64,000 nucleotides of DNA. It comes from Terriglobia bacterium (lineage in GTDB: Bacteria; Acidobacteriota; Terriglobia; UBA7540; JAPUME01). The DNA lies in assembly GCA_965237895.1 (NCBI GenBank), contig CBDEGR010000002.1, positions 1,950,796 through 2,014,795 on the forward strand, given 5' to 3'. The notes beneath the pieces are model-generated. The model worked only from the letters and a program-made list of their open reading frames with translations, made no database searches and was not told the DNA's origin. Below, piece after piece: positions 43,318-62,834 of the stretch (positions are counted from its first letter, which is position 1; every line of letters starts with the position of its first letter). The position numbers and the translations under genes were made by a program.

Positions 43318-43394
43318 GGGCCGGTAGCTCAGCAGGTTAGAGCATCTGCCTTTTAAGCAGAGGGTCCCGGGTTCGAGTCCCGGCCGGCTCACCA
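43318..43394 (+). tRNA. tRNA-Lys(TTT); integration site of element A
   Basis: GGGCCGG...CCGGCTC-A-CCA acceptor, TCTGC-CTTTTAA-GCAGA anticodon arm, GTTCGAGTC T-loop. Confidence 0.96.
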
Positions 43395-43479
43395 TTTAAC
43401 TTATGTGTTTTCAGCACCTGTTTTTCTTTCCTCTCATTGCCGAAGACGGAAACGTAAAGAAACCGTCAGAAAACTGGCC

Positions 43480-44489
43480 CTATCCGGCCAGCGCCGTAAA
43501 GGAAGTCGCGCCGTGCTCGTTCGCCTGCCGGTCGAGCTTGGACAGCGCTTCCCGCATCATGTTGAGCTTCGCCTGGCTGTAACGCTTGAACACCTGCGAA
43601 TCGCCTTGCCGCAGCATCTGCGTCACGAAATGATCCGCCACGCCCCCGGCGCTGAGCCGGGTCGCAAAGGTGTGGCGCAACTCGTACAGCGAAAAATGGG
43701 GCAACCCGGCACGCTGCAGCGTCCGGTCCCACAGCTTGGTCACCCTCGTGATGTGCGGCTTGCTTGATCCCATCCGCTGGCTCGGAAACAGGTAGTCGGA
43801 ATCGCCGCTCTGCTTCATCTGCGAGACGAACGCTGCGCGTACTCTGTCTGTCATAGGCATGTCCGCGATGCCGTTCACCGTCTTGGAACCCGGCAGATGC
43901 ACGATCCCGTTCTGCATATCCACCTGTTGCTTTCGCATCGGGATCAACTCCCGATAGGGCCGCAGCCCCATCTCCACCATAATCACGATGATGTTGCGCA
44001 AGTACACCGGCGCGCAGGCTTCCAGCCGAACCTGCTCCGAAGCACTCAGATAGTGCGGCTTGCGCGTCGTACCCGCCAACGGCACCGGAAACTCCACGCT
44101 GAAGCACGGATTGACCGCCAGCCGCTGCTTCTTCACCGCCACGTTCAGGATGCGTCGCAGGATGCGAAACTCCTGATGCACGGTGGCCGGTTTGAGCCGG
44201 CCGCGAAGTTGCAGCCCCAACTTGGTATGCACCCGCTTGCCTGTGTTTAGTCTCGTCATCAGATACGATTCGATCTCTTCCACTGTGATCTCCGAGAGTT
44301 TGTTCTTGCCGAACCGTGGCCTGAGGAACTTCAGCGCGCCGAGATGTTGCAGGTGGGTCTTCTCGCTCCGGAAGGGCGGTTGGGAGCGGTTCGCAAGGAA
44401 CCAGTCCGCCCACTGGTTAAAGCTGATCCCACCGTCCGGCGCGGCGCTCGGCGGCAACCCCTCATCGCGAGCCACCAACCGCTTGCGCA
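43480..44489 (-). pseudogene. Tyrosine integrase A, C-terminal part (codon ~52 onward)
   Basis: Near-identical to integrase B from RKRLVARDEG to FTALAG; homology stops at 44489. Confidence 0.9.
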
Positions 44490-44603
44490 GCAGCCAGGCG
44501 TCTTCCATTGTTTTCTCCCAACTCCTTCCTTTCGTTGCTCTTACACGGTTTTGGGGCGTCTGCTTTCGCTCGCAACGCCTACGGTTAGCCCGCTTGAGGG
44601 GCG

Positions 44604-44627
44604 AGTTTTCTGACGGTTTCTTGACGG
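44604..44627 (+). repeat. Putative integrase arm-type sites (AGTTTTCTGACGGTTTCTTGACGG)
   Basis: Same motif at 57968-57990 and, inverted, at 43453-43475; each lies ~100 bp from an att core. Confidence 0.7.
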
Positions 44628-44705
44628 TAGTTGCTGCCACGGCCATGCGCTAGGGGCTGAGGCGTACTTGGTTGCAGTAATCAGTAATGGTTTTCGAGCT
44701 GCCAT

Positions 44706-47630
44706 TGACCTGACCCCCTCAAACCGGTCCAGTTCTAATGTTAGAGTTGGACCTGGAATAGGGAGGTCAGGATGGTCAAGAGGAAGCATTCGATCGAACA
44801 GATTATCGGTAAACTTCGAGAGACCGAAGTGGAACTTGCCCAGGGTCGCAGCGTAGCCGAGGTGTGCCGGTCGTTGGGGGTGACCGAGCAGACCTATTAC
44901 CGCTGGCGAAAGGAGTACGGCGGTCTAAAGATGGATCAGGCCAAGCGGTTGAAGGTCCTCGAGCAGGAGAACACTCGCTTGAGGAGGGCGGTTGCAGACC
45001 TGACCTTGGACAAGCAGATTCTGCAGGAGGTCACAAGGGGAAACGGCTAAGCCCGGCGCGTCGCCGGCAGTGGGCGGCGCATGTCTGTAAGGCGTTGGGT
45101 GTCTCGGAACGCCGGGCTTGTCGAGTGCTCAGCCAACCCCGGTCCACCCAGCACCATCGATGCATCGCTGCTCCCGACGAGGATGCCCTGACGAGGGCCA
45201 TCGTCACCCTGGCCGGTCGGTTTGGTCGCTATGGCTATCGTCGGGTCACGGCCTTGCTGCGGCGAGCCGGCTGGAGGGTCAACCATAAGAGAGTGGAGCG
45301 CATCTGGAGGCGGGAGGGGTTGAGAGTGCCGCAGAAACAGCCGAAGCGTGGACGCCTTTGGCTCAACGACGGATCGTGCGTTCGTCTGCGCCCCTGCAGT
45401 CCGAACCACGTCTGGGCTTACGACTTCGTCCAAGCCCGCACTCACGACGGGAGGGCTTTCCGGTTGTTGACGGTCATCGATGAGTACACTCGGGAATGTC
45501 TGGCTATCCAGGTGGCCCGCCAGATTCGATCCGACGATGTCGTGCAGCTACTGGCCGATCTGTTCGTTCTCCGAGGTCCGCCCGAGCACCTTCGCTCGGA
45601 TAATGGCCCGGAGTTCTGCGCCCAAGCTCTACGAGAGTGGCTGGGGCGAATCGGAGTGAAGACGCTCTACACCCGCATTTCCAGTTTGAAATCGTAGAAG
45701 CAACCCTCGACTAACCTCCAACATCAATATTGATGCGGGGTCTAGCATCAACATTGCTTTCCGGAGGTGTAAACCCAATGGGTGAGAGCCAAAAACAGGG
45801 ATTTCAACTGTCATTCAACCGGTTTTTGCGGGTCGCTTTTCAGGGATCACGGGTGACCTCCAACGGAGGTCTGATTCTGGTGCGCGAGTTGGACGAGCGA
45901 TTGGGATTCGGCGAACTCGTCGAGCAGCACTTGAGCGATTCTCGAGCGAGCAATGCGCGGTTGCCCTTTGCGGACCTTCTACGGCAGTCCGTGTACAGTC
46001 GCCTGGCTGGGTACGAGGTATGTGAACGATGCCGAGCAACTCTCACGAGATCCGACCTTCGGGCTAATCGGTTCAGAGAAGAATTGGGATCGAGGGGCAG
46101 CACTGCCATCCCGGTTGCAAACCTTCGAGACGGAACTTCTGGCTGAGGAGGAAAACTTCGCGGGGCTGGCACGGGTAAACCGAGAGCTGATCGGCAATGC
46201 AGAAGCGATTGATTCACCGCACCGAACCGTTCTGGACATGGATTCGACCGAGATTCCGGTCTACGGCGAACAGGAGAATAGCGCCTACAACGGGCACTTC
46301 GAGTCCATGTGTTATCACCCGCTGTTGCTGTTTAATCGAGACGGCAACTGTCTGGCGGCGAAGCTCCGTCCTGGAAACGTGCACGGTGCCGAGGACTGGG
46401 AAGAACTTCTCCTGCCGGAGATTGAGCGGCAGCAGACGCTGGGCAAGGAGGTGGTGTTTCGTGCCGACGCCGCCTTCGCCAAACCGGAGATCTATGAGGC
46501 GCTGGAGGAGCGGGGCGTGAAGTACGCCATTCGCATTCCTTCTAACGACAACCTGGAACGAGATATTGCCGAACTGGTGCCGCGCCCGGTGGGCAGGCCC
46601 AGCAAGAAACCGCTGGTCGAAATACAAGGGATTTCTGTACCAGGCAGCCGGATGGAAGACGGCCCGAAGGGTGGTGGCGAAGGTAGAGCATCATCTGGGA
46701 GAGTTGTACCCGCGAGTCAGGTTCATTGTGACGAACCTGACGTTTCCGAGTCAGGCGGTGGTACGGTTTTACAACAAACGGGGGACAGCGGAGCAGTGGA
46801 TCAAAGAAGGAAAGCAAGCAGTGAAGATGACGCGGCTCAGTTGTCACCGGTTCCGGTCGAACGAGGTCCGGCTGTGGCTGACCATCATCGCCTATAACCT
46901 GGGCAACCTTTGGCGGCGGCTGGCATTGCCGCAAAGAATCGGGAACTGGTCCCTGACGAGCTTGCAGCAGCGATTGGTCAAAACCGGAGGACGCCTGATT
47001 AAGCATGCCCGCTATTATTGGTTGTTGTTAGCGGAGAGCCACCTGACTCGGCGGCTGTTTGCCAGCATGCTGGGACGGATAGATGGACTGTCGCTTCCCT
47101 CTGGATAGCCTAGCCTGCGGCACCCAAGAAAATGATTCCGATATCCCACAGGAATGGAGAGGTATCTGAAAAAGCTGGTTCTGGATGCCCAGGCGATGAG
47201 TTTTTAGGACTCGTAAAAGGGTGGCTGGGAGCCGGTGGGACCCTCTGGGAGAAAAACCGTGCTCGGAGGGCTCGACTGGGGCAAACGGATGTATACTTGC
47301 AACCGCCGGAGGGCTATAAAACTAATTCCGGCTACATCCAACCCGGGAGTCCCTGGGAGAACGGCTACAACGAGAGCTTTAATGGGAAGCTCCGCGACGA
47401 GTTGCTCGACCGGGAGATCTTCTACACCTTGCAGGAAGCGAAGGTGTTAATCGAGCAGTGGAGGCGACACTACAACAGGGTTCGACCTCACAGTGCTCTT
47501 GGTTATCGTCCACCGGCACCGGAGGCCATGGAAATCCCGCCGCTGCTCGGGAGGCAGCTGCCTCCCGACCTAGGGACAGAATTACCGCTGAACTAACATA
47601 CGAGTTGGTACAATCACTGGGGACAGGTCA
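44706..47630 (+). mobile_element. IS3-family element, copy 1 (orfA 44772-45050; orfB interrupted by IS1380)
   Basis: IRs TGACCTGACCCC / GGGGACAGGTCA, GGGAAAC frameshift motif, [22 protein letters not shown]. Confidence 0.93.
45672..47331 (+). mobile_element. IS1380-family element nested in IS3 orfB; transposase 45778-47108 with two frameshifts
   Basis: 5-bp target duplication CTACA (45667-45671, 47332-47336); 1660 bp; VTSNGGL, LDMDST, RADAAF, RGTAEQWIKEGK motifs. Confidence 0.9.
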
Positions 47631-47715
47631 GGTAACCGAGTACGATTACGAAGCCGCGCTCGGAGAGGCTTCGTAAATGTACAGTGTGTGCATCGCACTT
47701 TCCAAGGCCTCATGA

Positions 47716-49968
<2,253 letters not shown>

Positions 49969-50031
49969 TCCTAGTGTGGTGGCCGGTGGCAGCACTCAGC
50001 CGGTCTCTGTAGACTCAAGAGAATAGAGTGT

Positions 50032-50108
50032 GCGCCCGTAGCTCAGTTGGATAGAGCATCGGCCTTCTAATCCGAGGGTCGCAGGTTCGAATCCTGCCGG
50101 GCGCGCCA
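50032..50108 (+). tRNA. tRNA-Arg(TCT), with a C.T mismatch at the base of the anticodon loop
   Basis: GCGCCCG...CGGGCGC-G-CCA, TCGGC-CTTCTAA-TCCGA, GTTCGAATC. Confidence 0.92.
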
Positions 50109-50187
50109 CTTTCTCGCCGGATTCTGCCGACTGCGCAGGCTGGTGACCACTCCTGCGGTCACTTCTCGTCGTTCCGACCGGTCACAT

Positions 50188-51439
50188 TGACCAGACCGAT
50201 CTTTTGTACCAATCCTAGTGAGAGAGTTTACATCACAGCCTGGGGCTGCGAAATCGGTTCTGGGAGAAGAAATGGATTACAGGCCCCCGGCGCCGGGGGC
50301 CTGTAATCCAGCGCCGAGTGCGGTCTCCGGGTGTTGTATTCCTCCCGCCATTGCTCAATCACGATCTGGGCCTCCTGCAACGAGTAGAAGATCTCCCCGT
50401 TCAGGCATTCATCCCGCAACTTCCCATTGAAACTCTCACAATACCCGTTCTCCCATGGACTACCTGGTTCGATGTACAACGTTCCGGTCCCGAGATTCCC
50501 CAGCCATTGGCGCAACTTCTGGGCGACGAACTCCGGGCCGTTATCGGATCGAATGTGCTCCGGGATCCCTCGCCACAGCATCACGTCCGACAACGTCTCG
50601 ATCACCTCCAGGCTGCCCATCCTTCGCTCCACTCGGATCGCCAGGCATTCCCGCGTATACTCGTCCAGCAGCGTCAGCAACCGCAGCGTCCTTCCATCGT
50701 GCGTTCTGGCGCTAACAAAGTCATAGCTCCATACGTGGTTGCGCCGCTCCGGCCTCAGTCGTATACAGGAACCGTCGTTCAGCCACAGTCGTCTTCGCGG
50801 CCTGTGTTTTTGCGGCACTTTCAGCCCCTCTCGCCGCCAGATCCGCTGGACCCGATCCTTACCCACCTGCCAGCCTGCTCTTCGCAGCAGCGCCGTAATC
50901 CTCCGGTAGCCATAGCGGCCGTAGTTCGCTGCCAAGGCAATGATGGCCTGTGTCAGTTCATCCTCGTCCAGCCGATGCACCGGTTCATATCGTTGCGTTC
51001 CTCTCCATTGCCCTAGCAGCCAGCAGGCGTGCCGCTCACTCATCCCGTACTCGTGCTCGGCACGCTCCACCGCACAACGCCGCCGCTCAGGGCTTACAAG
51101 TTTCCCTGCGCCACATCCCGCGGTACCTGCTTCTCTATCGACAGCTCCGCCACTAGCCGTTTCAGTCGCGCATTCTCCTTCTCCAATTCCTTCGGCCGTC
51201 TGGCTTGGTCTAGCTTCAGTCCTCCGTACTCCTTCCGCCAGCGATAGTAGGTCTGGGTGTGGTTTCCGGCTTCTTTGCAGGCTTGGGGCACCTTCTTCCC
51301 GTTCGCGATCTGCACTTCGATCTGCCGTAGGACCGTTACGATCTGTTCCGGTTTGTTCTTTTCGATTGACATGACTTGCTTCCCTCCTAAATGAGATTCT
51401 CTCTCACTTCAGGTGGTACAAAAAGAGCCGGTCAGGTCG
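50188..51439 (-). mobile_element. Second IS3-family element (orfA 51094-51372, orfB ending at 50228)
   Basis: Imperfect IRs TGACCAGACCG..TTTTGTACC / GGTACAAAAA..CCGGTCAGGTCG; GGGAAAC motif; [22 protein letters not shown]. Confidence 0.92.
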
Positions 51440-52217
51440 GTGCGAGTACGAACCGCGCCAGGACAAACGCGGCTTTCAGGAGCGCGTCGAAGGGGTGCTG
51501 GCCGACGTAGGGATGTATCGCAACGTCTCCTACCGCGACCTGGTGGAGTCGCAATTCGGGGGACATCCCTACACGGCGCGGCGGGCTGTCGATCGCATGA
51601 TACGAGACGGCCACGTGCGGGAGCACCAGGCAAAGGGGCCGAGGGGCGGCACATACAAAGTGCTCACCTTGACCGAGGCCGGGGCGCGGAAAGCGCGCGA
51701 TTACGCCGTCGAGCAGGGATTCGACAAGGAACAGCAAACCTGGTCCGGGCTGGTGAAGCGTGGCGAGTTGAGCCACGACACCGCCGTCTACCGGGCGGCT
51801 CGGAAAGAGCAGCGGCGCCTTCTGCAACAAGGGGCCAGGATCCGTCGAGTCCGGATCGACGCGGAAATGAAAAAGCAGGTGGCGCGGGCCACCGAAGGCA
51901 GGGCGGCGGCAGACGCAACGCGGCGCCAGGCCGCTCAGGATTTAGAGCTTCCCATGCAACAGGGCCGGGTCGTCTATCCCGACGCTCAGATTGAATATCT
52001 GGACAGTGAGGGCCGCAGCGGGCGCGTCAACGTCGAGATTGCCTCGGAACACTACCGGCCCGGCGCTATTGCCGCCAAAGCCCGGGCCGAGTTCCAGATG
52101 CACGGCAGCGGTGGACGGGCAATCGCCGCGATTCACCGGGTGCTCGGCAATGGAGGGCGCGACGGCAGAGTCGGCGCACCCGCACGGGGCGGGCGAGAGG
52201 GCTCGATCGAGCTTTGA
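51440..52217 (+). CDS. Putative replication-relaxation / relaxase-related protein, 5'-truncated by IS3
   Basis: wHTH-like LTLTEAG, ELSHD, YPDAQIEY...NVEIASEHY; frame open up to the IS boundary; conjugation-gene context. Confidence 0.55.
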
Positions 52218-52220
52218 GCT

Positions 52221-52541
52221 ATGCAACCCTGGAAAGTCAGTATCGGACTCACCGTGACCGCTTCAGGCGTGGTTGCGATCTTCGGCTTGCCGGAACTCTC
52301 CTATCTCAAGCCGCACTGGAAGGTCCTGCTCCGCGACTACGGGTTGACCATCGCCCTCTATGGCGGGCTGGCCGTCGTCTCGTTCGCTTTCTCGATCTAT
52401 GCAGGCGCCCGCTCTTTGGGACTGGCCGATTTAGGCCGCAAGGTTGATCTGGTGGAGCGTTCGATCCGGCGCCGGGAGGGCGGCGATTCTGAACTTGCAG
52501 AGGCTTTGCACAATCAGTCAAAGGGGAAGTTTCCGGACTGA
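52221..52541 (+). CDS. Small two-TM membrane protein of the conjugation module
   Basis: Two hydrophobic segments; tightly packed between the relaxase-like gene and the pilin. Confidence 0.6.
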   Translation: MQPWKVSIGLTVTASGVVAIFGLPELSYLKPHWKVLLRDYGLTIALYGGLAVVSFAFSIYAGARSLGLADLGRKVDLVERSIRRREGGDSELAEALHNQSKGKFPD

Positions 52542-52571
52542 CTACCAACCGAACCAACAAAGGAGCAAGTC

Positions 52572-53219
52572 ATGACTTCACGATTTCCCCAATTCCGTAC
52601 CGCGGCGCTAATGACCGGCATGGGTTTGCTGATGCAGCAGGAACTTTTCGCCCAGGGCGTGAGTCCGTGGCTTGATGCGATCAACGTGCTACAGACGGCC
52701 TTCACCGGCCCCATCGCGCGCGGGCTGAGCCTGATTGCCATTGTGGTGGGCGGACTGATGTTCGCCTTCGGCGAGGGCGGCAGCAAGCGGGCTTTGGCCG
52801 GGATCATCTTCGGATTAGGCATGGCGATGGGCGCGGCGCATGAGTGGCTTTGGAGGGCTTTGCGGTTGAAAGGCATCGAGGTCCACGTCGTGGTAATGGG
52901 AGCAGACTACACAGCCACAAGGCGGTCCAAAGCGGCGCTCCAGAGTTGGAGCAACGGAGCGAGTGAGCAAGGCGTGCATAAAGCGGAAGGGCCGACCCAG
53001 GACGACCCGGCGGTGAAGGCTGAAATGCAACAGATTGAGGACGTAATGCGACGCGGAGATCGGGCAGGATTGTCAAAGTATGGCGGGTTCCAGGGAGCCA
53101 CAATGCGGTTGATCGAATTAAGAAAACTTCCCCAATCGAAGGGAGCATCCGGGGCCTCTATCGATAGCTACGAGACATGGGTCTCACGCCGATTGAGGAT
53201 GCTGGATGCGGAGCTATGA
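52572..53219 (+). CDS. trbC: TrbC/VirB2 pilin fused at ~52840 to unrelated sequence (probable deletion junction)
   Basis: SPWLDAINVLQTAFTGPIARGLSLIAIVVGGLMFAFGEGG is typical TrbC; the tail is not pilin-like. Confidence 0.75.
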   Translation: MTSRFPQFRTAALMTGMGLLMQQELFAQGVSPWLDAINVLQTAFTGPIARGLSLIAIVVGGLMFAFGEGGSKRALAGIIFGLGMAMGAAHEWLWRALRLKGIEVHVVVMGADYTATRRSKAALQSWSNGASEQGVHKAEGPTQDDPAVKAEMQQIEDVMRRGDRAGLSKYGGFQGATMRLIELRKLPQSKGASGASIDSYETWVSRRLRMLDAEL

Positions 53220-53293
53220 ACCGTAGAAATGGAGTCCCCATAAGCGGTGCCATACAGGACTGTTTTTATTGCGCCCCGTGCACGATGCCCGTG

Positions 53294-53551
53294 CCGATCC
53301 AGCCTGGTACGCAGACAAGGGGGGGAGTGTACCAAGATTCGGTGATGCGGTGTACCAGCACCCTTGTTCCTATCTATTTGCCGCAACGCGGCTTGTCCGT
53401 AATAGCCCGGCCAGCCCGCACCGATCCAGCGGAAAAGGGCAGGACGGGAGCGACCCCCCCTTTTTTGCCGCTGTATCGGCAAACGGGGAAGGGGGGTGTA
53501 CCAGCCGGTGTACCACCGCCTACCCCCCCTTTTCAGGGGTCGCTCCCGTCC
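53294..53551. repeat. Structured non-coding region, candidate oriT/origin
   Basis: 16-bp perfect IR 53442-53457/53536-53551, inner hairpins, four GTGTACCA repeats. Confidence 0.55.
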
Positions 53552-53620
53552 AATTTATCCCTACGGGAAGGTTCCGAACACCGACTACAAGCGGGCGCTG
53601 ACGCGCCGGAGGCAAGCCCC

Positions 53621-55638
53621 ATGAAAATGCTCTATCCGATCCTGATCTCTGGCGGGCTGTGCTGCTCTGTATGGGGTTTCATCTACCGGCCCTTCCCCTT
53701 GCCCGGCAACGATCCGGTGCTCGATCTGGTGCTCTATCACACCCCCAACTTCTACGGCTGGATCGTCCGCTGGTACTACGCCGCCCCCGCCATCGCCCTC
53801 ATTGTCGGCGGGCTTGTTCTTATCTCGGTCTAGCGGGTCTGGTTTGAGACATGGGGTAGCAATTTAACTGCCTTCAAATTGCTGCCACCCTGGCCCCTTT
53901 CTCCCGACAAAGACGCCGGGCCGGGCATCGTTGTCGGGGAGGTTCACCACCCGGTCAAAGCCGTCGAAATCCCGAACCCTTCCTGGCTCATTATCCCGGA
54001 GCGGGGACTGTATACCGGAGTGGCCATTTTCGGGGCCGTGGGGTCCGGCAAGACCTCGGCTTGCATGCACCAGTTCGCCCAGCAGATCTTGTCCTGGCAA
54101 TCGGGCAATCCCCAGCGCCGGGCGGCCGGCCTGATCCTGGAAGTCAAGGGCGACTTCTGTCATGACATCCGGAGAATCCTGGCCGATGCGGGCCGGGAGG
54201 AAGACTACATCGAGCTGGGAATGGAGGGCGGCTGGCAGTGGAATCCGCTCTCGACAAAATGGCTCGATTCTTACTCGTTGGCCTACACCGTTTCCTCCCT
54301 GCTCAACCAGTTGTTCGGCAAGGGCAAGGAGCCGTTCTGGCAACAGGCCTACACCAATCTGGTCCGCTGGATCATCGAACTCTACCGGGTCTTCCCCGGC
54401 CAATGGGTCACCTTGCAGCAGGTCTACCACTGCGCCATCGACAAGGAGCTGTTCGCGGCCAAGATCAAACAGGCCGAGGCGTTTGTCCGTGAGCTGCAAC
54501 AGGGAACACTGGTTATTTCCTTCGACGACTACCTTGCCAACGCGGACCACCTTTCCGGCTGGAAATGGCAACCGCCCACCCAGGAGAATACTTGCCATGC
54601 GGACCACTCTCCGTCGCTCGAATCCCAGCTCAAAGAACTCCAGATCGACTATCGGATAGAGCGTACCGAGAGCGTAAGGTCCTCAGAGATTCGGCAGCGG
54701 GTCGAGGCCGTCAATCGCTGGTATCAACACGACTGGCGGATGATCGACAACAAAATCCGGTCGAGCATCGTCGAGGGCATCTCGGTTTTCTTGTCCATGT
54801 TCGACCTGCCGGACGTGGCGCGGGTGTTTTGCCCACCGCCGCGAGTCCAAAAGGGACCACAGCAAGGCGAACAGCCGAGACTGGGAACGAGAGTGCGCCA
54901 GAGCTTGCCACCCCTTGATGAGTTGATCGAGTCGGGCAAGGTGCTGGCCCTGAACATGCCCGCCGGCACCAACCCGGCGCTGGCCCGCGCGATCGGCGTC
55001 ATGCTTAAAAACGCCTGGCTGCAATCGTTGCTACGGCGACCGGCGCAGATGAAGGCGGCGCCGGAGCGATACTTCCGGCCCGCCGTGTTCATCTGCGATG
55101 AATACCAGGCGTTCGCTTCCGTGGGTGAGGACGATCCCTCCGGCGACGAGAAATCCTTTGCCCTCACCCGGCAATGCCGCTGTATCCCGATTGTCGCCAC
55201 CCAGTCTATCTCCTCGCTGCGGTCGGTGCTCGGCAGCTCGGAAGCCTGGCGCACCCTTCTGCAAACCCTGCGCACCCGGATATTCCTTTCCTTGAGTGAT
55301 GACGCGAGCGCTCAAACCGCCTCAACTCTATGCGGCCAGGTCGCCAAGATCAAACCCTCCTAACACCATCACCGAGTCGGCCAAGCAAAGCGAGGTATCC
55401 ATGCTTTCGGCCCAGGCCGGAGGCGGACAAGGCAGCGTGGGGGCCAGTAAATCCTTTCGCGAGCAACGCGAGGCGGTGTTTCAGCCTCGCGAGTTTGCCC
55501 TGCTCTCCAACTGCCAGGCCATCTGTCTGCCCTACGACGGCGCACAGTCGCTCGCGCCGACCCGCGTGTACCCTCAAGCCTCACTACCTGCCCCGCATGC
55601 TTCCCTACTGGCGTGCGAAGGTCGAGGGGAAGCTATGA
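53621..55638 (+). pseudogene. VirD4/TraD-like coupling protein (TAG at 53831-53833, frameshifts ~55362 and ~55572)
   Basis: N-terminal TMs, GAVGSGKT Walker A, LEVKGD, FICDEYQ Walker B, VATQSISSL. Confidence 0.85.
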
Positions 55639-56608
55639 GCGACGGCCTGGAGTTGCTCAAAGCATTCCTGCCCGGCCTGGAAGCCGTGCTGGAGGACCCG
55701 GAAGTGAGCGAGATAATGATCAACGGCCCGCACAACGTCTGGATCGAAGGGCATGGAAAGCTCTATTCCCACGAGGCGCCGTTGCTGACCGCCTCAGCTC
55801 TGAATCGGGCCGCGATCCATATCGCGCGGCCTCTCGGTCTGGACCCGGCCACGGCTCCCATCGTCGATGCCCGCCTGGAGGACGGCTCGCGGGTTGCGAT
55901 CTGCGTTCCGCCCGCCAGCCCGAAGGTGGCGATCACCGTGCGGCGGTTTGGCAAACGGGCATTCTCGGCGGGTGACCTGGTAGAACAAGGCGCACTACCC
56001 AAGAATGTGAAGGAGACGGCGGAGCGGATGTTAATGACCCGCCGCAACATCCTGGTTTCGGGAGGGACCGGATCAGGCAAGACCACGCTGCTGAACGCGC
56101 TCATTGAATTGCTACCCGACGACGAGCGCATCGTCGCCATCGAGGACACCTTGGACTTCGCATCGAGCACTCCAATTGCGTCCGCTTCGAGGCTCGCGGG
56201 CTGGCAACCGGGGCGGTGACGATCCGGGACCTGGTGCGCCATGCCTTGCGTCACCGCCCGGATCACATCGTCGTGGGCGAGGTGCGCGGCGGGGAGGCCG
56301 CTGATCTGCTGCAGGCCCTCAACACCGGACACGGCGGCTCGCTCACCACCGTACACGCCAACAACGCCGAGAGCGCCTTGTCACGGCTCGCCAGTTGCGC
56401 CATGCAGGGAGGCGGGGAGCTGCCGTGGGAGGTCACCTGCCGGGGCGTGGTGGACGGCATTGCGATGGTGATTCACATGACCCGGCGCGAGGGACGGCGG
56501 TTTGTGGAGGAAGCCTTGCGCGTCCAGGGTTACGACGCGCCACAGAACCGCTGGCTCATCGAGCCGATCTGGAGGCAACACGATGAGGGAGGGAAAGATG
56601 AGTCTTGA
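55635..56608 (+). pseudogene. VirB11/CpaF-family ATPase of element B (frameshift ~56155)
   Basis: SEIMING, DARLEDGSR, GGTGSGKTT, RHRPDHIVVGEVRG, NTGHGGSLTTVHAN. Confidence 0.88.
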
Positions 56609-56819
56609 CGGAGAAGCAACAGATGCCCCGATCACGGTGAAGGACGCAGCCCGTTTCTTGGGCGTCAGCCCCTCGTTGGTGTATGCTTACGTGGAGCGAA
56701 AGCAGATTCCCCATTACCGCATGATGGGCCGCTCGATCCGATTCCGACTGTCGGAACTGGTTGAGTGGCGCCAGCAATTTCATGTGCATGGAGGAATCGA
56801 TGAACAACAAGATAGGTAG
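56598..56819 (+). CDS. Excisionase-like HTH protein (element B)
   Basis: ITVKDAARFLGVSPSLVY...IPHYRMMGRSIRF; overlaps the integrase start. Confidence 0.85.
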   Translation: MSLDGEATDAPITVKDAARFLGVSPSLVYAYVERKQIPHYRMMGRSIRFRLSELVEWRQQFHVHGGIDEQQDR

Positions 56820-57963
56820 ACCCAGAAATACATCGGGTAGCCTGTACTCCCGACGTGATTCACGCGTCTGGTGGATGAGCTACCGGGATCACAACGGAAA
56901 GTTCAGACAGGAATCGACAGGTGAGAGGGAAAGAGGCGAAGCCGAGAAGGTGATGCGTAAACGGTTGGTGGCTCGCGATGAGGGGCTGCTGCCGAGCGCC
57001 GCGCCGGACGGTGGGATCAGCTTTAACCAGTGGGCGGATTGGTTCCTTGCGAACCGATCCCAACCGCCCTTCCGGAGCGAGCAGACCCATCGGCACAACC
57101 TCGGCGCGCTGAAGTTCCTGAGGCCACGGTTCGGCAAGAACAAACTCTCGGACATCACAGTGGAAGGGATCGAATCGTATCTGATGACGAGACTAAACAC
57201 AGGCAAGCGGGTGCATACCAAGTTGGGGCTGCAACTTCGCGGCCGGCTCAAACCGGCCACCGTGCATCAGGAGTTTCGCATCCTGCGGCGCATCCTGAAC
57301 GTGGCGGTGAAGAAGCGGCGGCTGGCGGTCAATCCGTGCGTCAGCGTGGAGTTTCCGGTGCCGTTGGCGGGCACGACGCGCAAGCCGCACTATCTGAGTG
57401 CCTCGGAGCAGGTACGGCTGGAAGCCTGCGCACCGGTGTACTTGCGCAACATCATCGTGATCATGGTGGAGATGGGGCTGCGGCCCTATCGGGAGTTGAT
57501 CCCGATGCGAAAGGAACAGGTGGATCTGCAGAACGGGATCGTGCATCTGCCGGATTCCAAGACGGTGAACGGCATCGCGGACATGCCGATGACGGACCGA
57601 GTGCGCCAAGCGTTCGCCTCGCAGATGAAGCAGAGCGGCGATTCCAACTACTTGTTCCCAAGCCCGCAGATGGGATCAAGCAAGCCGCACATTACGACGG
57701 TGCACAAAGTGTGGGACCGGACACTCCAGCGCGCCGGGCTGCCCCATTTTTCGCTGTACGAGTTGCGGCACACGTTTGCAACCCGGCTCAGCGCCGGGGG
57801 AGTGGCGGATCATTTCGTGACGCAGATGCTCAGACAGGGTGATTCGCAGGTGTTCAAGCGTTACAGCCAGGCGAAGCTCACCATGATGCGGGAAGCGCTG
57901 TCCCAGCTCGACCGGCAGGCGAACGAGCACGGCGCGACTTCCTTTACGGCGCTGGCCGGATAG
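56800..57963 (+). CDS. Intact tyrosine integrase B (387 aa)
   Basis: GGAGG RBS; arm-binding-like N-terminus; GLRPYREL, SKT, YELRHTFATR, FKRY. Confidence 0.92.
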   Translation: MNNKIGRPRNTSGSLYSRRDSRVWWMSYRDHNGKFRQESTGERERGEAEKVMRKRLVARDEGLLPSAAPDGGISFNQWADWFLANRSQPPFRSEQTHRHNLGALKFLRPRFGKNKLSDITVEGIESYLMTRLNTGKRVHTKLGLQLRGRLKPATVHQEFRILRRILNVAVKKRRLAVNPCVSVEFPVPLAGTTRKPHYLSASEQVRLEACAPVYLRNIIVIMVEMGLRPYRELIPMRKEQVDLQNGIVHLPDSKTVNGIADMPMTDRVRQAFASQMKQSGDSNYLFPSPQMGSSKPHITTVHKVWDRTLQRAGLPHFSLYELRHTFATRLSAGGVADHFVTQMLRQGDSQVFKRYSQAKLTMMREALSQLDRQANEHGATSFTALAG

Positions 57964-58049
57964 GGCCAGTTTTCTGACGGTTTCTTTACGATTCCGTCTT
58001 TCGGCAATGAGAGGGAAGGCAGACGGGTGCTGAAAACAAATAAGTTAAA

Positions 58050-58094
58050 TGGAGACCCAGGCCGAATTCGAACCGGCGACCCGCTGCTTGCGCA
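58050..58094 (-). other. att site of element B carrying a tRNA 3'-half
   Basis: TGCGCAA-GCAGC-GGGTC-GCCGG-TTCGAAT-TCGGC-CTGGGTC-T-CCA on the minus strand; no 5' half. Confidence 0.85.
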
Positions 58095-58248
58095 TCACCT
58101 TCTCGGCTTCGCCTTTCTCCTTTCGGCCTGTCGACTCCTGCCTGAACTTTCCGTTGTGGTCCCGGTAGCTCATCCACCAGACGCGTGAATCACGTCGGGA
58201 GTACAGGCTACCGGAGGTATTTCTGGGTCTACCTATCTTGTTGTTCAT
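58086..58248 (-). pseudogene. Tyrosine integrase A, N-terminal fragment
   Basis: MNNKIGRPRNTSGSLYSRRDSRVWW...KVMRK matches the integrase B N-terminus and rejoins 44489 in frame. Confidence 0.9.
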
Positions 58249-58450
58249 CGATTCCTCCATTGACATGAAATTGTTGACGCCACTCGGCCAGCTCCGACAA
58301 TCGGAAGCGGATCGAGCGGCCCATCATGCGGTAATGGGGAATCTGCTTTCGCTCGACGTAAGCATACACCAGCGAGGGGCTGACACCCAAGAAACGGGCT
58401 GCGTCCTTCACCGTGATCGGGGCATCTGTTGCTTCTCCGTCAAGACTCAT
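58229..58450 (-). CDS. Excisionase-like HTH protein (element A)
   Basis: Near-identical paralog of 56598-56819. Confidence 0.85.
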   Translation of the reverse strand: MSLDGEATDAPITVKDAARFLGVSPSLVYAYVERKQIPHYRMMGRSIRFRLSELAEWRQQFHVNGGIDEQQDR

Positions 58451-59307
58451 CTTTCCCTCCCTCATGGTGTTGCCTCCAGATCGGCTCGATGAGCCAGCGG
58501 TTCTGTGGCGCGTCGTAACCCTGGACGCGCAAGGCTTCCTCCACAAACCGCCGTCCCTCGCGCCGGGTCATGTGAATCACCATCGCAATGCCGTCCACCA
58601 CGCCCCGGCAGGTAACCTCCCAGGGCAGCTCCCCGCCGCCCTGCATGGCGCAACTGGCGAGCCGCGACAAGGCGCTCTCGGCGTTGTTGGCGTGTACGGT
58701 GGTGAGCGAGCCGCCATGTCCGGTGTTGAGGGCTTGCGGCAGGTCCGCCGCTTCTCCTCCTCGCACCTCGCCCACTACGATATGATCCGGACGGTGACGC
58801 AGGGCATGGCGCACCAAGTCCCGGATCGTCACCGCCCCGATTGCAAGCCCGCGAGCCTCGAAACGAACGCAATTGGAGTGCTCGATGCGCAACTCCAGGG
58901 TGTCCTCGATGGCGACGATGCGCTCGTCGTCGGGCAGCAATTCAATGAGCGCGTTGAGCAGCGTGGTCTTGCCTGATCCGGTGCCTCCTGAAACCAGGAT
59001 GTTCCGGCGGGCAAATAACACCCGCTCCGCCGCTTGCCGTACAGTCTCGGGAAGGGCGCCTTGTTCTACCAGGTCCGCCGCCGAGAATGCCCGTTTACCA
59101 AAGCGCCGCACGGTGATCGCTACCTTCGGGCTCGCCGGCGGAACACAGATCGCAACCCGCGAGCCGTCCTCCAGGCGGGCATCGACGATGGGAGCCGTGG
59201 CCGGGTCCAGGCCGAGAGGCCGCGCGATATGGATAGCGGCCCGATTCAGAGCTGAGACGGTCAGCAACGGAGCCTCGTGGGAATAGAGCTTTCCATGTCC
59301 CTCGACC
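58440..59307 (-). pseudogene. VirB11/CpaF-family ATPase of element A, 5'-truncated by IS3
   Basis: Paralog of 55635-56608; homology ends at the IS left IR. Confidence 0.88.
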
Positions 59308-60567
59308 TGACCTGACCCCCTCAAACCGGTCCAGTTCTAATGTTAGAGTTGGACCTGGAATAGGGAGGTCAGGATGGTCAAGAGGAAGCATTCGATCGAA
59401 CAGATTATCGGTAAACTTCGAGAGACCGAAGTGGAACTTGCCCAGGGTCGCAGCGTAGCCGAGGTGTGCCGGTCGTTGGGGGTGACCGAGCAGACCTATT
59501 ACCGCTGGCGAAAGGAGTACGGCGGTCTAAAGATGGATTAGGCCAAGCGGTTGAAGGTCCTCGAGCAGGAGAACACTCGCTTGAGGAGGGCGGTTGCAGA
59601 CCTGACCTTGGACAAGCAGATTCTGCAGGAGGTCACAAGGGGAAACGGCTAAGCCCGGCGCGTCGCCGGCAGTGGGCGGCGCATATCTGTAAGGCGTTGG
59701 GTGTCTCGGAACGCCGGGCTTGTCGAGTGCTCAGCCAACCCCGGTCCACCCAGCGCCATCGATGCATCGCTGCTCCCGACGAGGATGCCCTGACGAGGGC
59801 CATCGTCACCCTGGCCGGTCGGTTTGGTCGCTATGGCTATCGTCGGGTCACGGCCTTGCTGCGGCGAGCCGGCTGGAGGGTCAACCATAAGAGAGTGGAG
59901 CGCATCTGGAGGCGGGAGGGGTTGAGAGTGCCGCAGAAACAGCCGAAGCGTGGACGCCTTTGGCTCAACGACGGATCGTGCGTTCGTCTGCGCCCCTGCA
60001 GTCCGAACCACGTCTGGGCTTACGCCTTCGTCCAAGCCCGCACTCACGACGGGAGGGCTTTCCGGTTGTTGACGGTCATCGATGAGTACACTCGGGAATG
60101 TCTGGCTATCCAGGTGGCCCGCCAGATTCGATCCGACGATGTCGTGCAGCTACTGGCCGATCTGTTCGTTCTCCGAGGTCCGCCCGAGCACCTTCGCTCG
60201 GATAATGGCCCGGAGTTCTGCGCCCAAGCTCTACGAGAGTGGCTGGGGCGAATCGGAGTGAAGACGCTCTACATCCAACCCGGGAGTCCCTGGGAGAACG
60301 GCTACAACGAGAGCTTTAATGGGAAGCTCCGAGACGAGTTGCTCGACCGGGAGATCTTCTACACCTTGCAGGAAGCGAAGGTGTTAATCGAGCAGTGGAG
60401 GCGACACTACAACAGGGTTCGACCTCACAGTGCTCTTGGTTATCGTCCACCGGCACCGGAGGCCATGGAAATCCCGCCGCTGCTCGGGAGGCAGCTGCCT
60501 CCCGACCTAGGGACAGAATTACCGCTGAACTAACATACGAGTTGGTACAATCACTGGGGGCAGGTCA
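59308..60567 (+). mobile_element. IS3-family element, copy 2 (orfA nonsense TAG at 59538; orfB WAYAF instead of WAYDF)
   Basis: Near-identical to copy 1 without the IS1380; same IRs; no target duplication. Confidence 0.93.
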
Positions 60568-62543
60568 CCCTCCTCCCCCGCTTTGCCTACGTGGCCAACT
60601 CAGAGGACGACACCCTATCCATTTACACCATCGAGGCCGAAACTGGTTTGATGCTCCCGAACGGGTACGTGAACGCAGGCGACGGTCCTGCTTCGGTGAC
60701 GATTGATCCCTCCAACCGGTTCGTCTATGCGGCGAATACCAATTCGAACAACGTCTCCGTCTACACGATTGACGCCGCCACCGGGAATTTGACGCTGGTG
60801 GAGACCGAGGCGGCCGGAACCGGCCCTACCTCCGTCACGGTCGATCCCTCCGGCCAATTCGCCTATGCCGCCAACTTCACCTCTAACGACGTCTCCGTTT
60901 ACACGATTGACGCCGCCAGCGGCGCGCTGACTCTGGTGGAGACCGAGGCGGCCGGGACCGGCCCTACCTCCGTCACGGTCGACCCCTCCGGCCAATTCGC
61001 CTATGCCGCCAATTTCAACTCCAACGACGTCTCCATCTACACGATTAACACTGCCACCGGCGCGCTGAGTCCGACGGGACCCGTTGCCGCCGGAGAGGGC
61101 CCCGAGTCCGTTGCCATCGACCCCTCCGGAAAATTCGCCTATGCCGCAAATTTCACCTCCGATGACATCTCGGTCTATACGATTGACACCGCCACCGGCG
61201 CGTTAACCCCAGCCGGGACCGTTGCGGCCGGGACAGGCCCCATCTCCGTCACGGTCCACCCGACCGGCCAATTCGCCTATGCCGCCAACTTCACCTCCAA
61301 CGACGTCTCCGTTTACACGATTGACGCCGCCAGCGGCGCGCTGAGTCCGACGGAGCCCGTTGCCGCCGGAGAAGGCCCTGAGTCCCTCGCCATCGACCCT
61401 TCCGAAGAGTTCGTCATAGTCGCCAACAGCGTTTCTTTCGATGTTTCCTTCTACACGATTGACCCCGCCACCGGAAACTTGACCCTTCCCCGTACCCTGC
61501 GGGCCAGGTTCAATCCCTCTTCCGTTGCCCTGAGCGGGAGTACGACTGCCTTTGTCCAAACTCCGAAGTTCGCCTATGTCGCCAATTCCGGTTCCAACGA
61601 CATTTCCGCCTTTACGATTGACGCCGCCACCGGCGCGCTGACTCTGGTGGAAACCGAGGCGGCGGGAACCACTCCCCGCTCCGTAGCCGTGGGACCCTTC
61701 GGACGGTTCGCATATGTGGCCAATTCCGGTTCCAACAACGTCTCCGCCTACACGATTGATGCCGCCACCGGCGCGTTAACCCCAGCCGGAACCGTTGCGG
61801 CGGGAACCGCTCCGATCTCCGTCGAGGTCGATCCCTCCGGCCGGTTCGTCTACCTCGCCAATTCCGGTTCCAACGACGTCTCTGCCTTTACAATTAACCC
61901 CGCCACCGGAGCGCTGACCGCAGCCGGGACAGTGGCCGCCGGAACCCTTCCTCGCTTCATCCTTGTCGAACCCTCCGGCCGGTTCCTCTACACGGCAAAC
62001 TTCAATTCCACTAATGTCTCCGTCTATACGATTGATTCCATCACCGGAGCACTAACCTCGGTCGAAGCCTTTGCCCCCGGTACGGACTCCCGCTCGCTCA
62101 CCCTCGCCCCTTCCGGAAAGTTCCTCTATGTGGCCAATTGGTTTTCCAACAATATCCGCGCCTACAAGATCGATGCGCCCACAGGAATTTTGACGTTATC
62201 GGGGCTCTCCACCCTCGGAGGGGCATCTCGTCCGATCTCCATGACAATCGATCCTTTCGGCCTGTTCCTCTATTCGGCAAACTTCGGTTCAAACGACGTC
62301 ATCTCCTTCAACGCAGACAACTCCACGGGCACTCTATCCTTCAATGGGACCTTCCCCGCAGGGAACAACCCCACCTCCATAACGATGGGGCGCTCCGGCC
62401 TGTTCGTCTATGTGGCGAACTTCGGTTCGAACGACGTCTCCGTCTTCTCGATTACGGAAACTTCAGGCGATCTGACCTTGGTGGAAACCGTGGCTGCCGG
62501 AACAGACCCCAGGTCGATTACCACGACCGGGACGATTCAGTAG
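60568..62543 (+). CDS. Lactonase-like double beta-propeller repeat protein, 5'-truncated by IS3
   Basis: ~14 repeats of ~46 aa (P.SV.VDPSG.FAYAANF.SNDVSVYTID..TG.L); frame open back to the IS end (PPRFAYVAN). Confidence 0.85.
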
Positions 62544-62579
62544 CGCCCAACCCACAGTAAGGGCCACAGCAAAGGCCGC

Positions 62580-62834
62580 CGCAGGGAGCGGGGAAGAGAG
62601 CCCTGATCGTCGGCTGCGGATTGCCGGGTTCGTCCGGCCGGGAGGAACGCTTGCGGGTTCTCACGCGCTTGGCCGGGATGCAGCGGACGCTCCCGGAGAG
62701 CTGCCCTGGCCGCTGACCAGAGACGACCTGAACGCCTTCGTGCAATAGGGCTTTACAGAAGAGACGAAATTCCTGGATTATCTCGACCACGAAACCCCGT
62801 CGGCCCGAAGATTTCGTGCCGAATACCTGGCTTG
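62580..62834 (+). pseudogene. Remnant of a class I SAM-dependent methyltransferase (TPMT-like)
   Basis: Fragments GKRALIVGCGL and ELPWPLTRDDL...RRFRAEY with a stop and an apparent deletion. Confidence 0.45.

Follow-up and report, generated by a model that had tools for sequence, protein, structure and literature searches.

The window analysed here is a 64,000-nucleotide stretch of contig CBDEGR010000002.1 from a Terriglobia bacterium (assembly GCA_965237895.1). It contains a tyrosine integrase gene that lies in two pieces on the minus strand, next to a tRNA-Lys gene and on either side of an inserted element with an integrase gene of its own (Table 1). The split gene, integrase A, belongs to resident A, and the inserted element is referred to as B. 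The two ends of B are named c, the P-arm end, and g, the integrase-side end formed by a pseudo-tRNA or tRNA 3' half. The C-terminal piece of integrase A, A(C), contains the core-binding and catalytic domains (PF00589 at 1.4e-17), while the N-terminal piece, A(N), as it stands continues through g into a stop codon at 58045. An earlier note on this DNA had described the two pieces as separated by 13.6 kb bounded by a direct repeat; its coordinates and arithmetic were confirmed, with the end of A(N) placed at 58095. Its statement that removal of the insert restores a 387-codon frame colinear with that of integrase B also held, as the two pieces add up to 1164 nt (154 + 1010), i.e., 387 codons plus a stop codon, which equals integrase B from its MNNKIG start, with Met52 at offset 153.

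The insert, measured from repeat to repeat, is 13,605 bp long. An empty site is found in a related genome (G002), in which the tRNA-Lys gene carries an uninterrupted integrase that is 99% identical to A(C) and whose first 51 residues are identical to A(N) (51/51). The empty site matches the outer flanks of the insert at 50/50 positions to the left of the overlap (junction J2) and at 49/50 positions to the right (J1), versus only 15/50 and 19/50 positions for the inner flanks. This match establishes both that the interruption is real and that 13,605 bp were inserted precisely. The site in the resident integrase open reading frame (ORF), covering codons 51-55, reads GGTGA-TGCGCAA-GCGGT. A(C) beside tRNA-Lys and integrase B share 93-94% DNA identity in inverted orientation, as do A(N) with its upstream xis and virB11-like genes and their copies in B. 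The homology between B and A ends at the junction and does not cross it, and no end of an insertion sequence (IS) abuts either junction. Two other arrangements were considered and rejected. An inversion between a site in integrase A and an att site would misplace the reverse complement of the N-terminal part of integrase A, while both pieces are on one strand and the outer flanks are colinear with the empty site. Self-splitting of the SSV type is rejected on the grounds that the insert keeps an intact integrase B and that the split gene is the resident's, as judged by the intact orthologue at tRNA-Lys of G002.

Table 1. Features at and around the insertion, in order of position in the window
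Feature	Position	Strand	Remarks
tRNA-Lys(TTT)	43318-43394	+	ARAGORN call; attachment site of resident A; int converges on tRNA 3' end
Arm-type motif of A, int-proximal	43453-43480	-	inverted copy of 28-nt motif, 93%
Integrase A, C-terminal piece A(C)	43480-44489	-	1010 nt, codon 52 position 2 to stop; open frame
Direct repeat, left copy GCTTGCGCA	44481-44489		GC + TTGCGCA on + strand
P-arm end c of B	44490-44705	+	conserved 216 bp; core GCAGC 44490-44494; arm motif 44599-44626
IS3-family IS (rve transposase)	44706-47630	+	interrupted by IS4-like element 45675-47331
katG catalase-peroxidase, cargo	47719-49968	+	PF00141 at 3.6e-73
tRNA-Arg(TCT) inside insert	50032-50108	+	ARAGORN call
Second IS3-family element	50188-51436	-	about 65% identical to first
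B conjugation backbone	51437-56608	+	Pfam; colinear with siblings
TrbC/VirB2 pilin of B	52572-53219	+	Pfam
VirD4-like of B	53879-55363	+	Pfam
VirB11-like gene of B, in two ORFs	55296-56219, 56216-56608	+	
xis-like gene of B	56502-56819	+	within 93% inverted copy of xis A region
Integrase B, intact, 387 aa	56800-57963	+	PF00589 at 3.5e-17
Arm-type motif of B, int-proximal	57963-57990	+	directly after int B stop; direct copy of 44599-44626, 93%
Pseudo-tRNA 3' half g of B	58050-58087	-	38 nt: anticodon-stem strand, variable loop, T arm, acceptor strand, CCA
Direct repeat, right copy GCTTGCGCA	58086-58094		TGCGCAA on minus strand, 58094-58088, at pseudo-tRNA anticodon-loop position
Integrase A, N-terminal piece A(N)	58248-58095	-	154 nt = 51 codons + 1 nt
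xis A (HTH_17/AlpA-like)	58229-58546	-	HTH_17 at 2.3e-14
VirB11-like gene of A	58440-59324	-	PF00437 at 7.3e-47; truncated by IS3-family copy 59308-60567

Copies of c are always found at an element end and number 5 in the window's own genome (G000; contigs C1 and C2, 3.0 Mb), at least about 33 in G001, a single-contig genome of a different genus in the same bacterial family, and 4 in G002. End g shares 82-86% identity with the 3' halves of the tRNA genes for Lys and Arg that lie beside sibling integrases; these integrases, like integrase A, converge on the 3' ends of their tRNA genes. At the loop position before GCAG, the siblings carry the heptamers CTTTTAA (Lys), CTCCTAA (Arg-CCT) and CTTCTAA (Arg-TCT). 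The heptamer of B is TGCGCAA, which matches none of the aligned sibling tRNAs (52 tRNA genes are listed for the genome) and equals integrase codons 52-54 (aTG CGC AAg). GCTGC on the g side and GCAGC on the c side form a perfect inverted pair around these 7 bp, and the repeated arm motifs lie about 100 bp to either side of this core. The arm-like motif that the earlier note had seen near both ends of the insert is a direct repeat matching at 26 of 28 positions. Since c and g with their arms flank a symmetric core, they make up a canonical attP (the attachment site of the mobile partner).

Interruption at the same VMRKR codons was then looked for in related genomes, the check that had been asked for, with a positive result. 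For this survey 36 P-arm and 28 int-side junctions were extracted from G001 and G002 and pooled with those of G000, which gave 41 c junctions (5 in G000, 32 in G001 and 4 in G002) and 34 g junctions (6, 24 and 4, respectively), with the G001 counts being lower bounds from the best 40 candidates scored. Left out of the c counts was a G001 match at 967933-968093 that begins at query position 50 and has no junction, while arm-motif-only matches of 26-31 nt were left out of the end counts and G000 C1:87454, a tRNA similarity of 42 nt, out of the g ends. The integrase site seen in the window accounts for 8 of the 41 c junctions, 7 in the window orientation and 1 in the opposite one (2/5 in G000, 6/32 in G001 and 0/4 in G002), and for 4 of the 34 g junctions, 3 in the window orientation and 1 opposite (1/6, 3/24 and 0/4, respectively). 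Four nested inserts are complete, each a precise insertion of one element into another at the recurrent site and each with matching repeats: that of the window (13.6 kb, TGCGCAA), G001 3527257-3540734 (13.5 kb, TGCGCAA), G001 2516993-2548886 (31.9 kb, TGCGTAA) and G001 1720863-1783332 (62.5 kb), which lies in the opposite orientation and has TTGCGCA in the sense of the element. An opposite orientation with a reverse-complement repeat would be expected were the orientation dictated by an asymmetric overlap. The 12 junctions whose heptamer is TGCGYAA or its complement all lie in int genes, and none lies elsewhere. Together with the empty-site orthologue in G002, this recurrence supports the claim that B used the integrase gene of a relative as attB (the target attachment site).

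The sibling integrases number about ten in G000, where a second c|int(C) junction of identical sequence is found on the other contig with flanks that are 88-92% identical to those of the window, and about 24 in G001, where six of them begin at residue 47-49. Integrase relatives at about 86-95% identity turned up only within the bacterial family of the window itself, where two of the three other genomes examined had them; in a phylum sample beyond G000, 1 of 300 genomes had a match at E<=1e-80, with 51% identity. The remaining junctions are at tRNA-Lys, tRNA-Arg and tRNA-Asp genes and at many non-tRNA places, each with its own heptamer, and a GC dinucleotide lies beside the 7 bp (N7) in 29 of 36 targets. 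The tRNA-site anatomy of the family is seen in resident A, at tRNA-Lys, and in siblings located beside tRNA-Arg(CCT) and tRNA-Arg(TCT) genes, and tRNA fragments are found at the far ends of L038 and L048 (Lys), L044 (Asp) and L045 (Arg). The heptamer CGCCCAA recurs three times in G001 (L068-L070 with L021, L027 and L034) with homologous flanks on both sides; its site is a second recurrent non-tRNA target, within another repeated sequence.

For INDEPENDENCE and for the lineage, 34 integrase C-parts were placed on a maximum-likelihood tree built from 1007 columns. On this tree the label 'cut' requires 8 changes. The cut genes each stand apart from the others. Three of them are placed beside intact close relatives: integrase A with the G002 pair (support 100/100), G001 1325343 with 4014970 (100/100) and G001 1677453 with 1430253 (100/98). 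A constraint that unites the 7 same-orientation cut genes in one clade lowers the log-likelihood by 416 units (p-AU 8.9e-6 in the approximately unbiased (AU) test). Such a scatter of cut integrases indicates repeated hits rather than one inherited event. The three integrases of the same-orientation inserts, i.e., integrase B and two from G001 that are themselves inside int genes, form one clade (97/96) that requires 1 change. Given this clade and the divergence of the inserts, one lineage has struck different residents repeatedly, and the residents, from two genera, are unrelated to one another. For instance, the 13.5-kb insert of G001 shares only the backbone with B, at 73-76% identity, and none of the cargo of B, and is thus not the same composite copied.

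Based on these results, we propose that B belongs to a lineage of elements derived from integrative and conjugative elements (ICEs) whose attP crossover matches codons 52-54 of sibling integrases, a reading to which we assign a probability of roughly 0.8; the data support a sibling integrase ORF serving as attB recurrently and in a lineage-specific manner. Integrase B, with arm sites on both sides, would have exchanged strands within the 7-bp overlap TGCGCAA, leaving c joined to A(C) and A(N) to g. The repeat is 9 bp rather than 7 bp long because both partners also share GC. GCTGC/GCAGC in attP and GGTGA/GCGGT in the integrase site may act as core-type sites, by analogy with the tRNA anticodon-loop paradigm. 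For each element, the 7-bp overlap together with a loose GC-N7-GC(AG) frame may be what chiefly determines the target. The int-codon overlap could have been gained by one sublineage, most simply when an element was excised from a secondary site, the route known from lambda saf mutants. Such a lineage would now land harmlessly wherever a sibling resides, and its excision would restore the split ORF exactly. An attP with the reverse-complement overlap inserts in the opposite orientation.

Several observations weigh against this proposal. The family is promiscuous: 24 of the 32 c junctions of G001 are at assorted sites that are neither tRNA nor int genes, and because most G001 junctions are of this kind, the int site, although favoured, is one of numerous targets. 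Integrases that are identical over the C-part (G001 1782047 and 2803695) adjoin different overlaps, which suggests that specialisation may lie in the 7 bp alone. Two further positions in int genes also carry c ends, one at about aa 277-289 (G000 C2:577658-579027) and one at aa 137 (G002 L046/L047, two identical copies), and at both positions int reads in sense into the arm. These junctions hint at a broader bias toward int genes or at further secondary sites, which the proposed model leaves unexplained. The cleavage points are those that the tRNA paradigm would predict, while what is observed is the 9-bp repeat. Gene conversion among copies of about 90% identity could blur the tree, and the group used in the AU test, the 7 same-orientation cut genes, was named post hoc, after the tree had been seen. 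Neither an excised circle nor a restored int was seen in the Logan contigs of four of 21 public runs (X1, X15, X16 and X19) over 44300-58300, and a joint of 44489 with 58095 is absent from the 15 of 75 joints listed; the pieces are mostly 170-770 nt long, come from mixed communities and are silent on excision. A metagenome scan with a degenerate 26-mer for the c-side junction or attP gave 11 loci, all of them unrelated coding sequence without the c arm.

The alternative that survives best, although we consider it unlikely, needs no specialised lineage: any sibling integrase would occasionally use an int-internal secondary site, the overlap would be copied from the target, and int genes would be hit frequently as there are up to about 24 copies per genome. 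The diverse G001 junctions just mentioned, each with its own 7 bp, and the identical integrases with different overlaps are what it would predict, and both synonymous alleles of the site (CGC and CGT) are found with matching repeats. It accounts poorly for the finding that the three same-orientation insert integrases, which come from two genera, form one clade with a single change, for the restriction of the TGCGYAA-type overlap to int genes at all 12 junctions, and for the position of the B overlap inside a fully formed attP core with perfectly inverted GCTGC/GCAGC.

Far less probable is that one ancestral nested composite was copied or transferred, so that all split integrases descend from one accident. 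The identical junction sequence of the two G000 copies is in its favour, and composites could move if a sibling integrase acts in trans. The scatter of the cut integrases on the tree, with three of them beside intact relatives and the single clade rejected, speaks against it, as do residents at different sites with different overlaps (tRNA-Lys, L073, L063 and others). In addition, the opposite-orientation pair cannot stem from the same event, and neither the size nor the content of the inserts is uniform. Less probable still is that siblings of about 90% identity recombined, homologously or illegitimately, or that an IS-mediated rearrangement took the place of integrase action: with 34 copies of one IS, many inverted sibling repeats and an insert remodelled by IS elements, the genome offers the material for such events, but the break falls exactly at the anticodon-loop position of the pseudo-tRNA with a 9-bp duplication, the flanks are colinear with the empty site to the base, the homology between B and A halts at the junction, and neither junction is abutted by an IS end. 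An assembly artefact is hardly credible. The region is repeat-rich, and the contig pieces of the public runs were not long enough to span the junctions, with none of those listed over 44300-58300 reaching across either one, but a 9-bp repeat cannot mislead an assembler and the same junction types are found in a single-contig genome of another genus.

Intact integrases vary at the target site almost only synonymously, with CGC or CGT for R53 and AAG or AAA for K54. The AAA codon, which removes the GC beside the overlap, is found in 11 of the 24 intact genes and in none of the 8 cut genes, all of which have AAG (hypergeometric p about 0.02, calculated by hand on copies that are not independent). 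The attP heptamer of an element differs by one base from the site in its own int gene in all three same-orientation inserts (3/3), but not in the opposite-orientation insert. In this small sample the pattern would fit escape and self-avoidance. Tentatively, and with more doubt than belief, we suggest an 'integrase-hunting' lineage in an arms race with its relatives. Its attP crossover would have been rewritten from the anticodon loop to int codons 52-54 and would track the CGC and CGT alleles of codon 53, the siblings would escape via the change of K54 from AAG to AAA, and the insertion would be a reversible switch, making this a bacterial counterpart of archaeal suicidal integrases. If this were true, it would illustrate how an integrase ORF can acquire an att core.

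In streptococci, the known targets of nested integration are conjugation or accessory genes. Nested 'Matryoshka' integration is described for integrative and mobilizable elements inside ICEs of Firmicutes (PMC9585547) and for prophages inside prophages of E. coli, where the internal attB sites are prophage-carried copies of chromosomal attB regions (PMC8112680). As in these systems, the element in the window uses a site within an integrated element as attB, and the composite is resolvable in principle. Unlike them, attB is here the coding sequence of the resident integrase, and the invader has an integrase of the same family and the same arms, which makes the target a relative of the enzyme. 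The archaeal 'suicidal' integrases of the SSV/pTN3/pT26-2 type split their own gene, and a review presents self-disrupting integrases as found only in archaea (PMC8371274); a further paper on such integrases is PMC7253208. The similarities are that the recombination core is within the int ORF, that int(N) and int(C) halves flank the integrated DNA and that reversal needs a complete related integrase. The difference is that an archaeal element splits its own gene upon entering a tRNA gene, whereas here a second element with an intact int splits that of a sibling, and it is the incoming partner that carries the tRNA-like sequence. Phage_integr_3 (PF16795) was not found in these integrases by the Pfam profiles, which recognised only PF00589 and SAM-like domains.

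Integration into tRNA genes with the crossover in the anticodon loop (P4-like or 'class I' sites) was reportedly described by Williams in 2002. The siblings and resident A are like class I sites in that their integrase genes point toward the 3' end of the tRNA gene, the tRNA 3' half beyond the start of the loop is contributed by attP, and the halves of the anticodon stem serve as inverted cores. B keeps this architecture, but its target is an int ORF instead of a tRNA gene. For lambda, overlap identity is the rule and the asymmetry of the overlap sets the orientation, and excision from secondary sites gives an attP with a new overlap that prefers that site (saf mutants), which has been a laboratory curiosity. 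The two orientations with TGCGCAA and TTGCGCA resemble the lambda overlap rule. Unlike lambda saf, the switch appears here to have founded a natural lineage and a spectrum of targets. Transposons of the Tn5053 family, the 'res hunters', are reported to be aimed at res sites via interaction with the resolvase (PMC7765201). Like them, the elements in this study are directed against the recombination systems of other mobile elements, a host-safe target; unlike them, they rely on a tyrosine integrase for which a coding sequence serves as attB. The full-text literature searched, with subscription journals largely outside its scope, yielded no bacterial report of an integrase ORF in the role of attB. 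The present case combines nested integration with an att core inside an int ORF: in a bacterial ICE family, this ORF serves as attB for a sibling whose own integrase gene stays intact.

On the reading proposed here, the split integrase is no one-off, and one branch of the family has aimed its 7-bp crossover at the integrase genes of its kin. The invader would benefit from a site that is present wherever its relatives live and that comes at no cost to the host. For genome annotation, some 'pseudogenised' integrases may be filled attB sites that are reversible in principle, which would also explain Russian-doll islands. For recombinase evolution, the family offers about 40 naturally occurring attP/attB pairs of near-identical enzymes, including tRNA, non-tRNA and int-internal targets in both orientations, on which the rules of target switching can be tested directly. 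It is, in addition, a bacterial parallel to the archaeal integrases with an att site inside the int ORF.

The earlier note had concluded that B disabled the resident at tRNA-Lys and that excision would switch integrase A back on. The first is formally true, but A is already a stump. The homology of A to B stops at 59305, an IS that starts at 59308 cuts off A at 59306 within the virB11-like gene, and no P arm for A in the correct orientation is found anywhere in the G000 genome. Resident A, which belongs to one family with the siblings that have a VirB-type secretion system, is thus a remnant without a far end. As to the second, excision would restore the 387-codon ORF, but, as A has no far end, the restored integrase A would revive no element in G000. 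Competition between the elements or piggy-backing, which the note had offered as explanations, is a conjecture.

B was likewise taken for a sibling of A with its own int and xis genes, and these genes are present. It is not a clean copy of a sibling, as it contains two IS elements, katG and a tRNA-Arg gene and is without 8.2 kb of type IV secretion system genes. These 8.2 kb are present in siblings between the equivalents of 52837 and 52829 and encode VirB4-, VirB6-, VirB8-, VirB9- and VirB10-like proteins. Sibling L119, for instance, encodes a VirB4-like ATPase, CagX/VirB9, TrbI/VirB10, TrbL/VirB6 and VirB8 and has a region that matches the VirD4- and VirB11-like genes of B. An integrase, a VirB-type mating-pair apparatus and a coupling protein, the hallmarks of an ICE, are thus found together in L119. 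The set is incomplete in copy B, where the 8.2 kb are absent and the VirB11-like gene is in two ORFs, and in A, where the IS cuts in at 59306. No relaxase was identified among the ORFs scanned. B is a decayed ICE-family member that keeps int, xis and both att halves. Its katG gene has no DNA match in G001 and G002, which makes this cargo specific to copy B. The stretch with katG and tRNA-Arg(TCT) (47719-50108) is located between two different IS elements. In the contigs of the public runs, the only consistent long joint, from 45666 to 47332, represents the first IS without its IS4-like interruption. A 1260-bp IS3-family element, represented in the window at 44706-47630 and 59308-60567, has 34 full-length copies of at least 99.2% identity in the 3.0-Mb genome, and IS copies truncate both A and B.

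Integrase B is about 92% identical to integrase A over residues 49-387, and in both integrase B and A(C) the PF00589 profile recognises the C-terminal catalytic domain above its cut-off. Integrase B also matches XerA (5hxy) at 1.4e-5. Its residues R228, K254, R323 and Y355, candidates for the catalytic R-K-H-R-H/W-Y set, are invariant in 6 relatives, with R323 and Y355 aligned to XerA, and the two catalytic-histidine positions are Y320 and Q346 in the XerA alignment. Integrase residues 1-77 have no Pfam match. AlphaFold predicts strands at 12-17, 24-29 and 35-39 and a helix at 45-59, with low confidence in this region (pLDDT, the per-residue model confidence, of 30-55). The cut after residue 51 would fall inside this N-terminal helix, in what is at this confidence an arm-binding-like layout. 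Every P-arm end, whatever its target, has an outward Shine-Dalgarno-like GGAG..GGGAG, followed by ATG or GTG and then by GAA GAC GCC (44508-44530 in the window). The ATG in the c end of the window is at 44510-44508 and in frame with A(C). A 67-aa N-terminal fragment with a tail and, starting from this ATG, a 342-aa N-terminally truncated integrase are speculative products of the insertion that the reading frames would allow. No sigma-70-like site was found in 44300-44900, which keeps expression of the c-int(C) fusion speculative. The idea that c is a remnant of xis was dropped: the two share a 27-nt match, but its exact seed is 14 nt long, and when 24 kb are compared with 24 kb a few such seeds should turn up by chance.

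A more distant type of integrase, 61-62% identical, is found at G000 C1:86100-87452, G000 C2:2194835-2196165 and G001 C1:1640186-1641537. Each of these genes has a complete tRNA-Arg gene (CCT or TCT) about 125 bp downstream on the same strand, and int 5' of the tRNA gene is an unusual layout. The spacer is conserved between the two G000 copies though their tRNAs differ, and it holds two copies of the direct repeat TTTTGGCACAG. In the same genome, C2:2182927-2194874 and C2:2314976-2326803 have the same ladder of matches, including an IS and an integrase truncated from residue 78, and the second ends at the contig end; these repeated stretches are a duplication of roughly 12 kb or an unresolved assembly repeat. 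Finally, tandem 138-nt units at 60582-62543 of the window encode a lactonase-type beta-propeller ORF (PF10282 at 4.6e-113), and the 'tRNA-Ser(ACT)' that ARAGORN places at the end of this array (62504-62589) is probably a false call.

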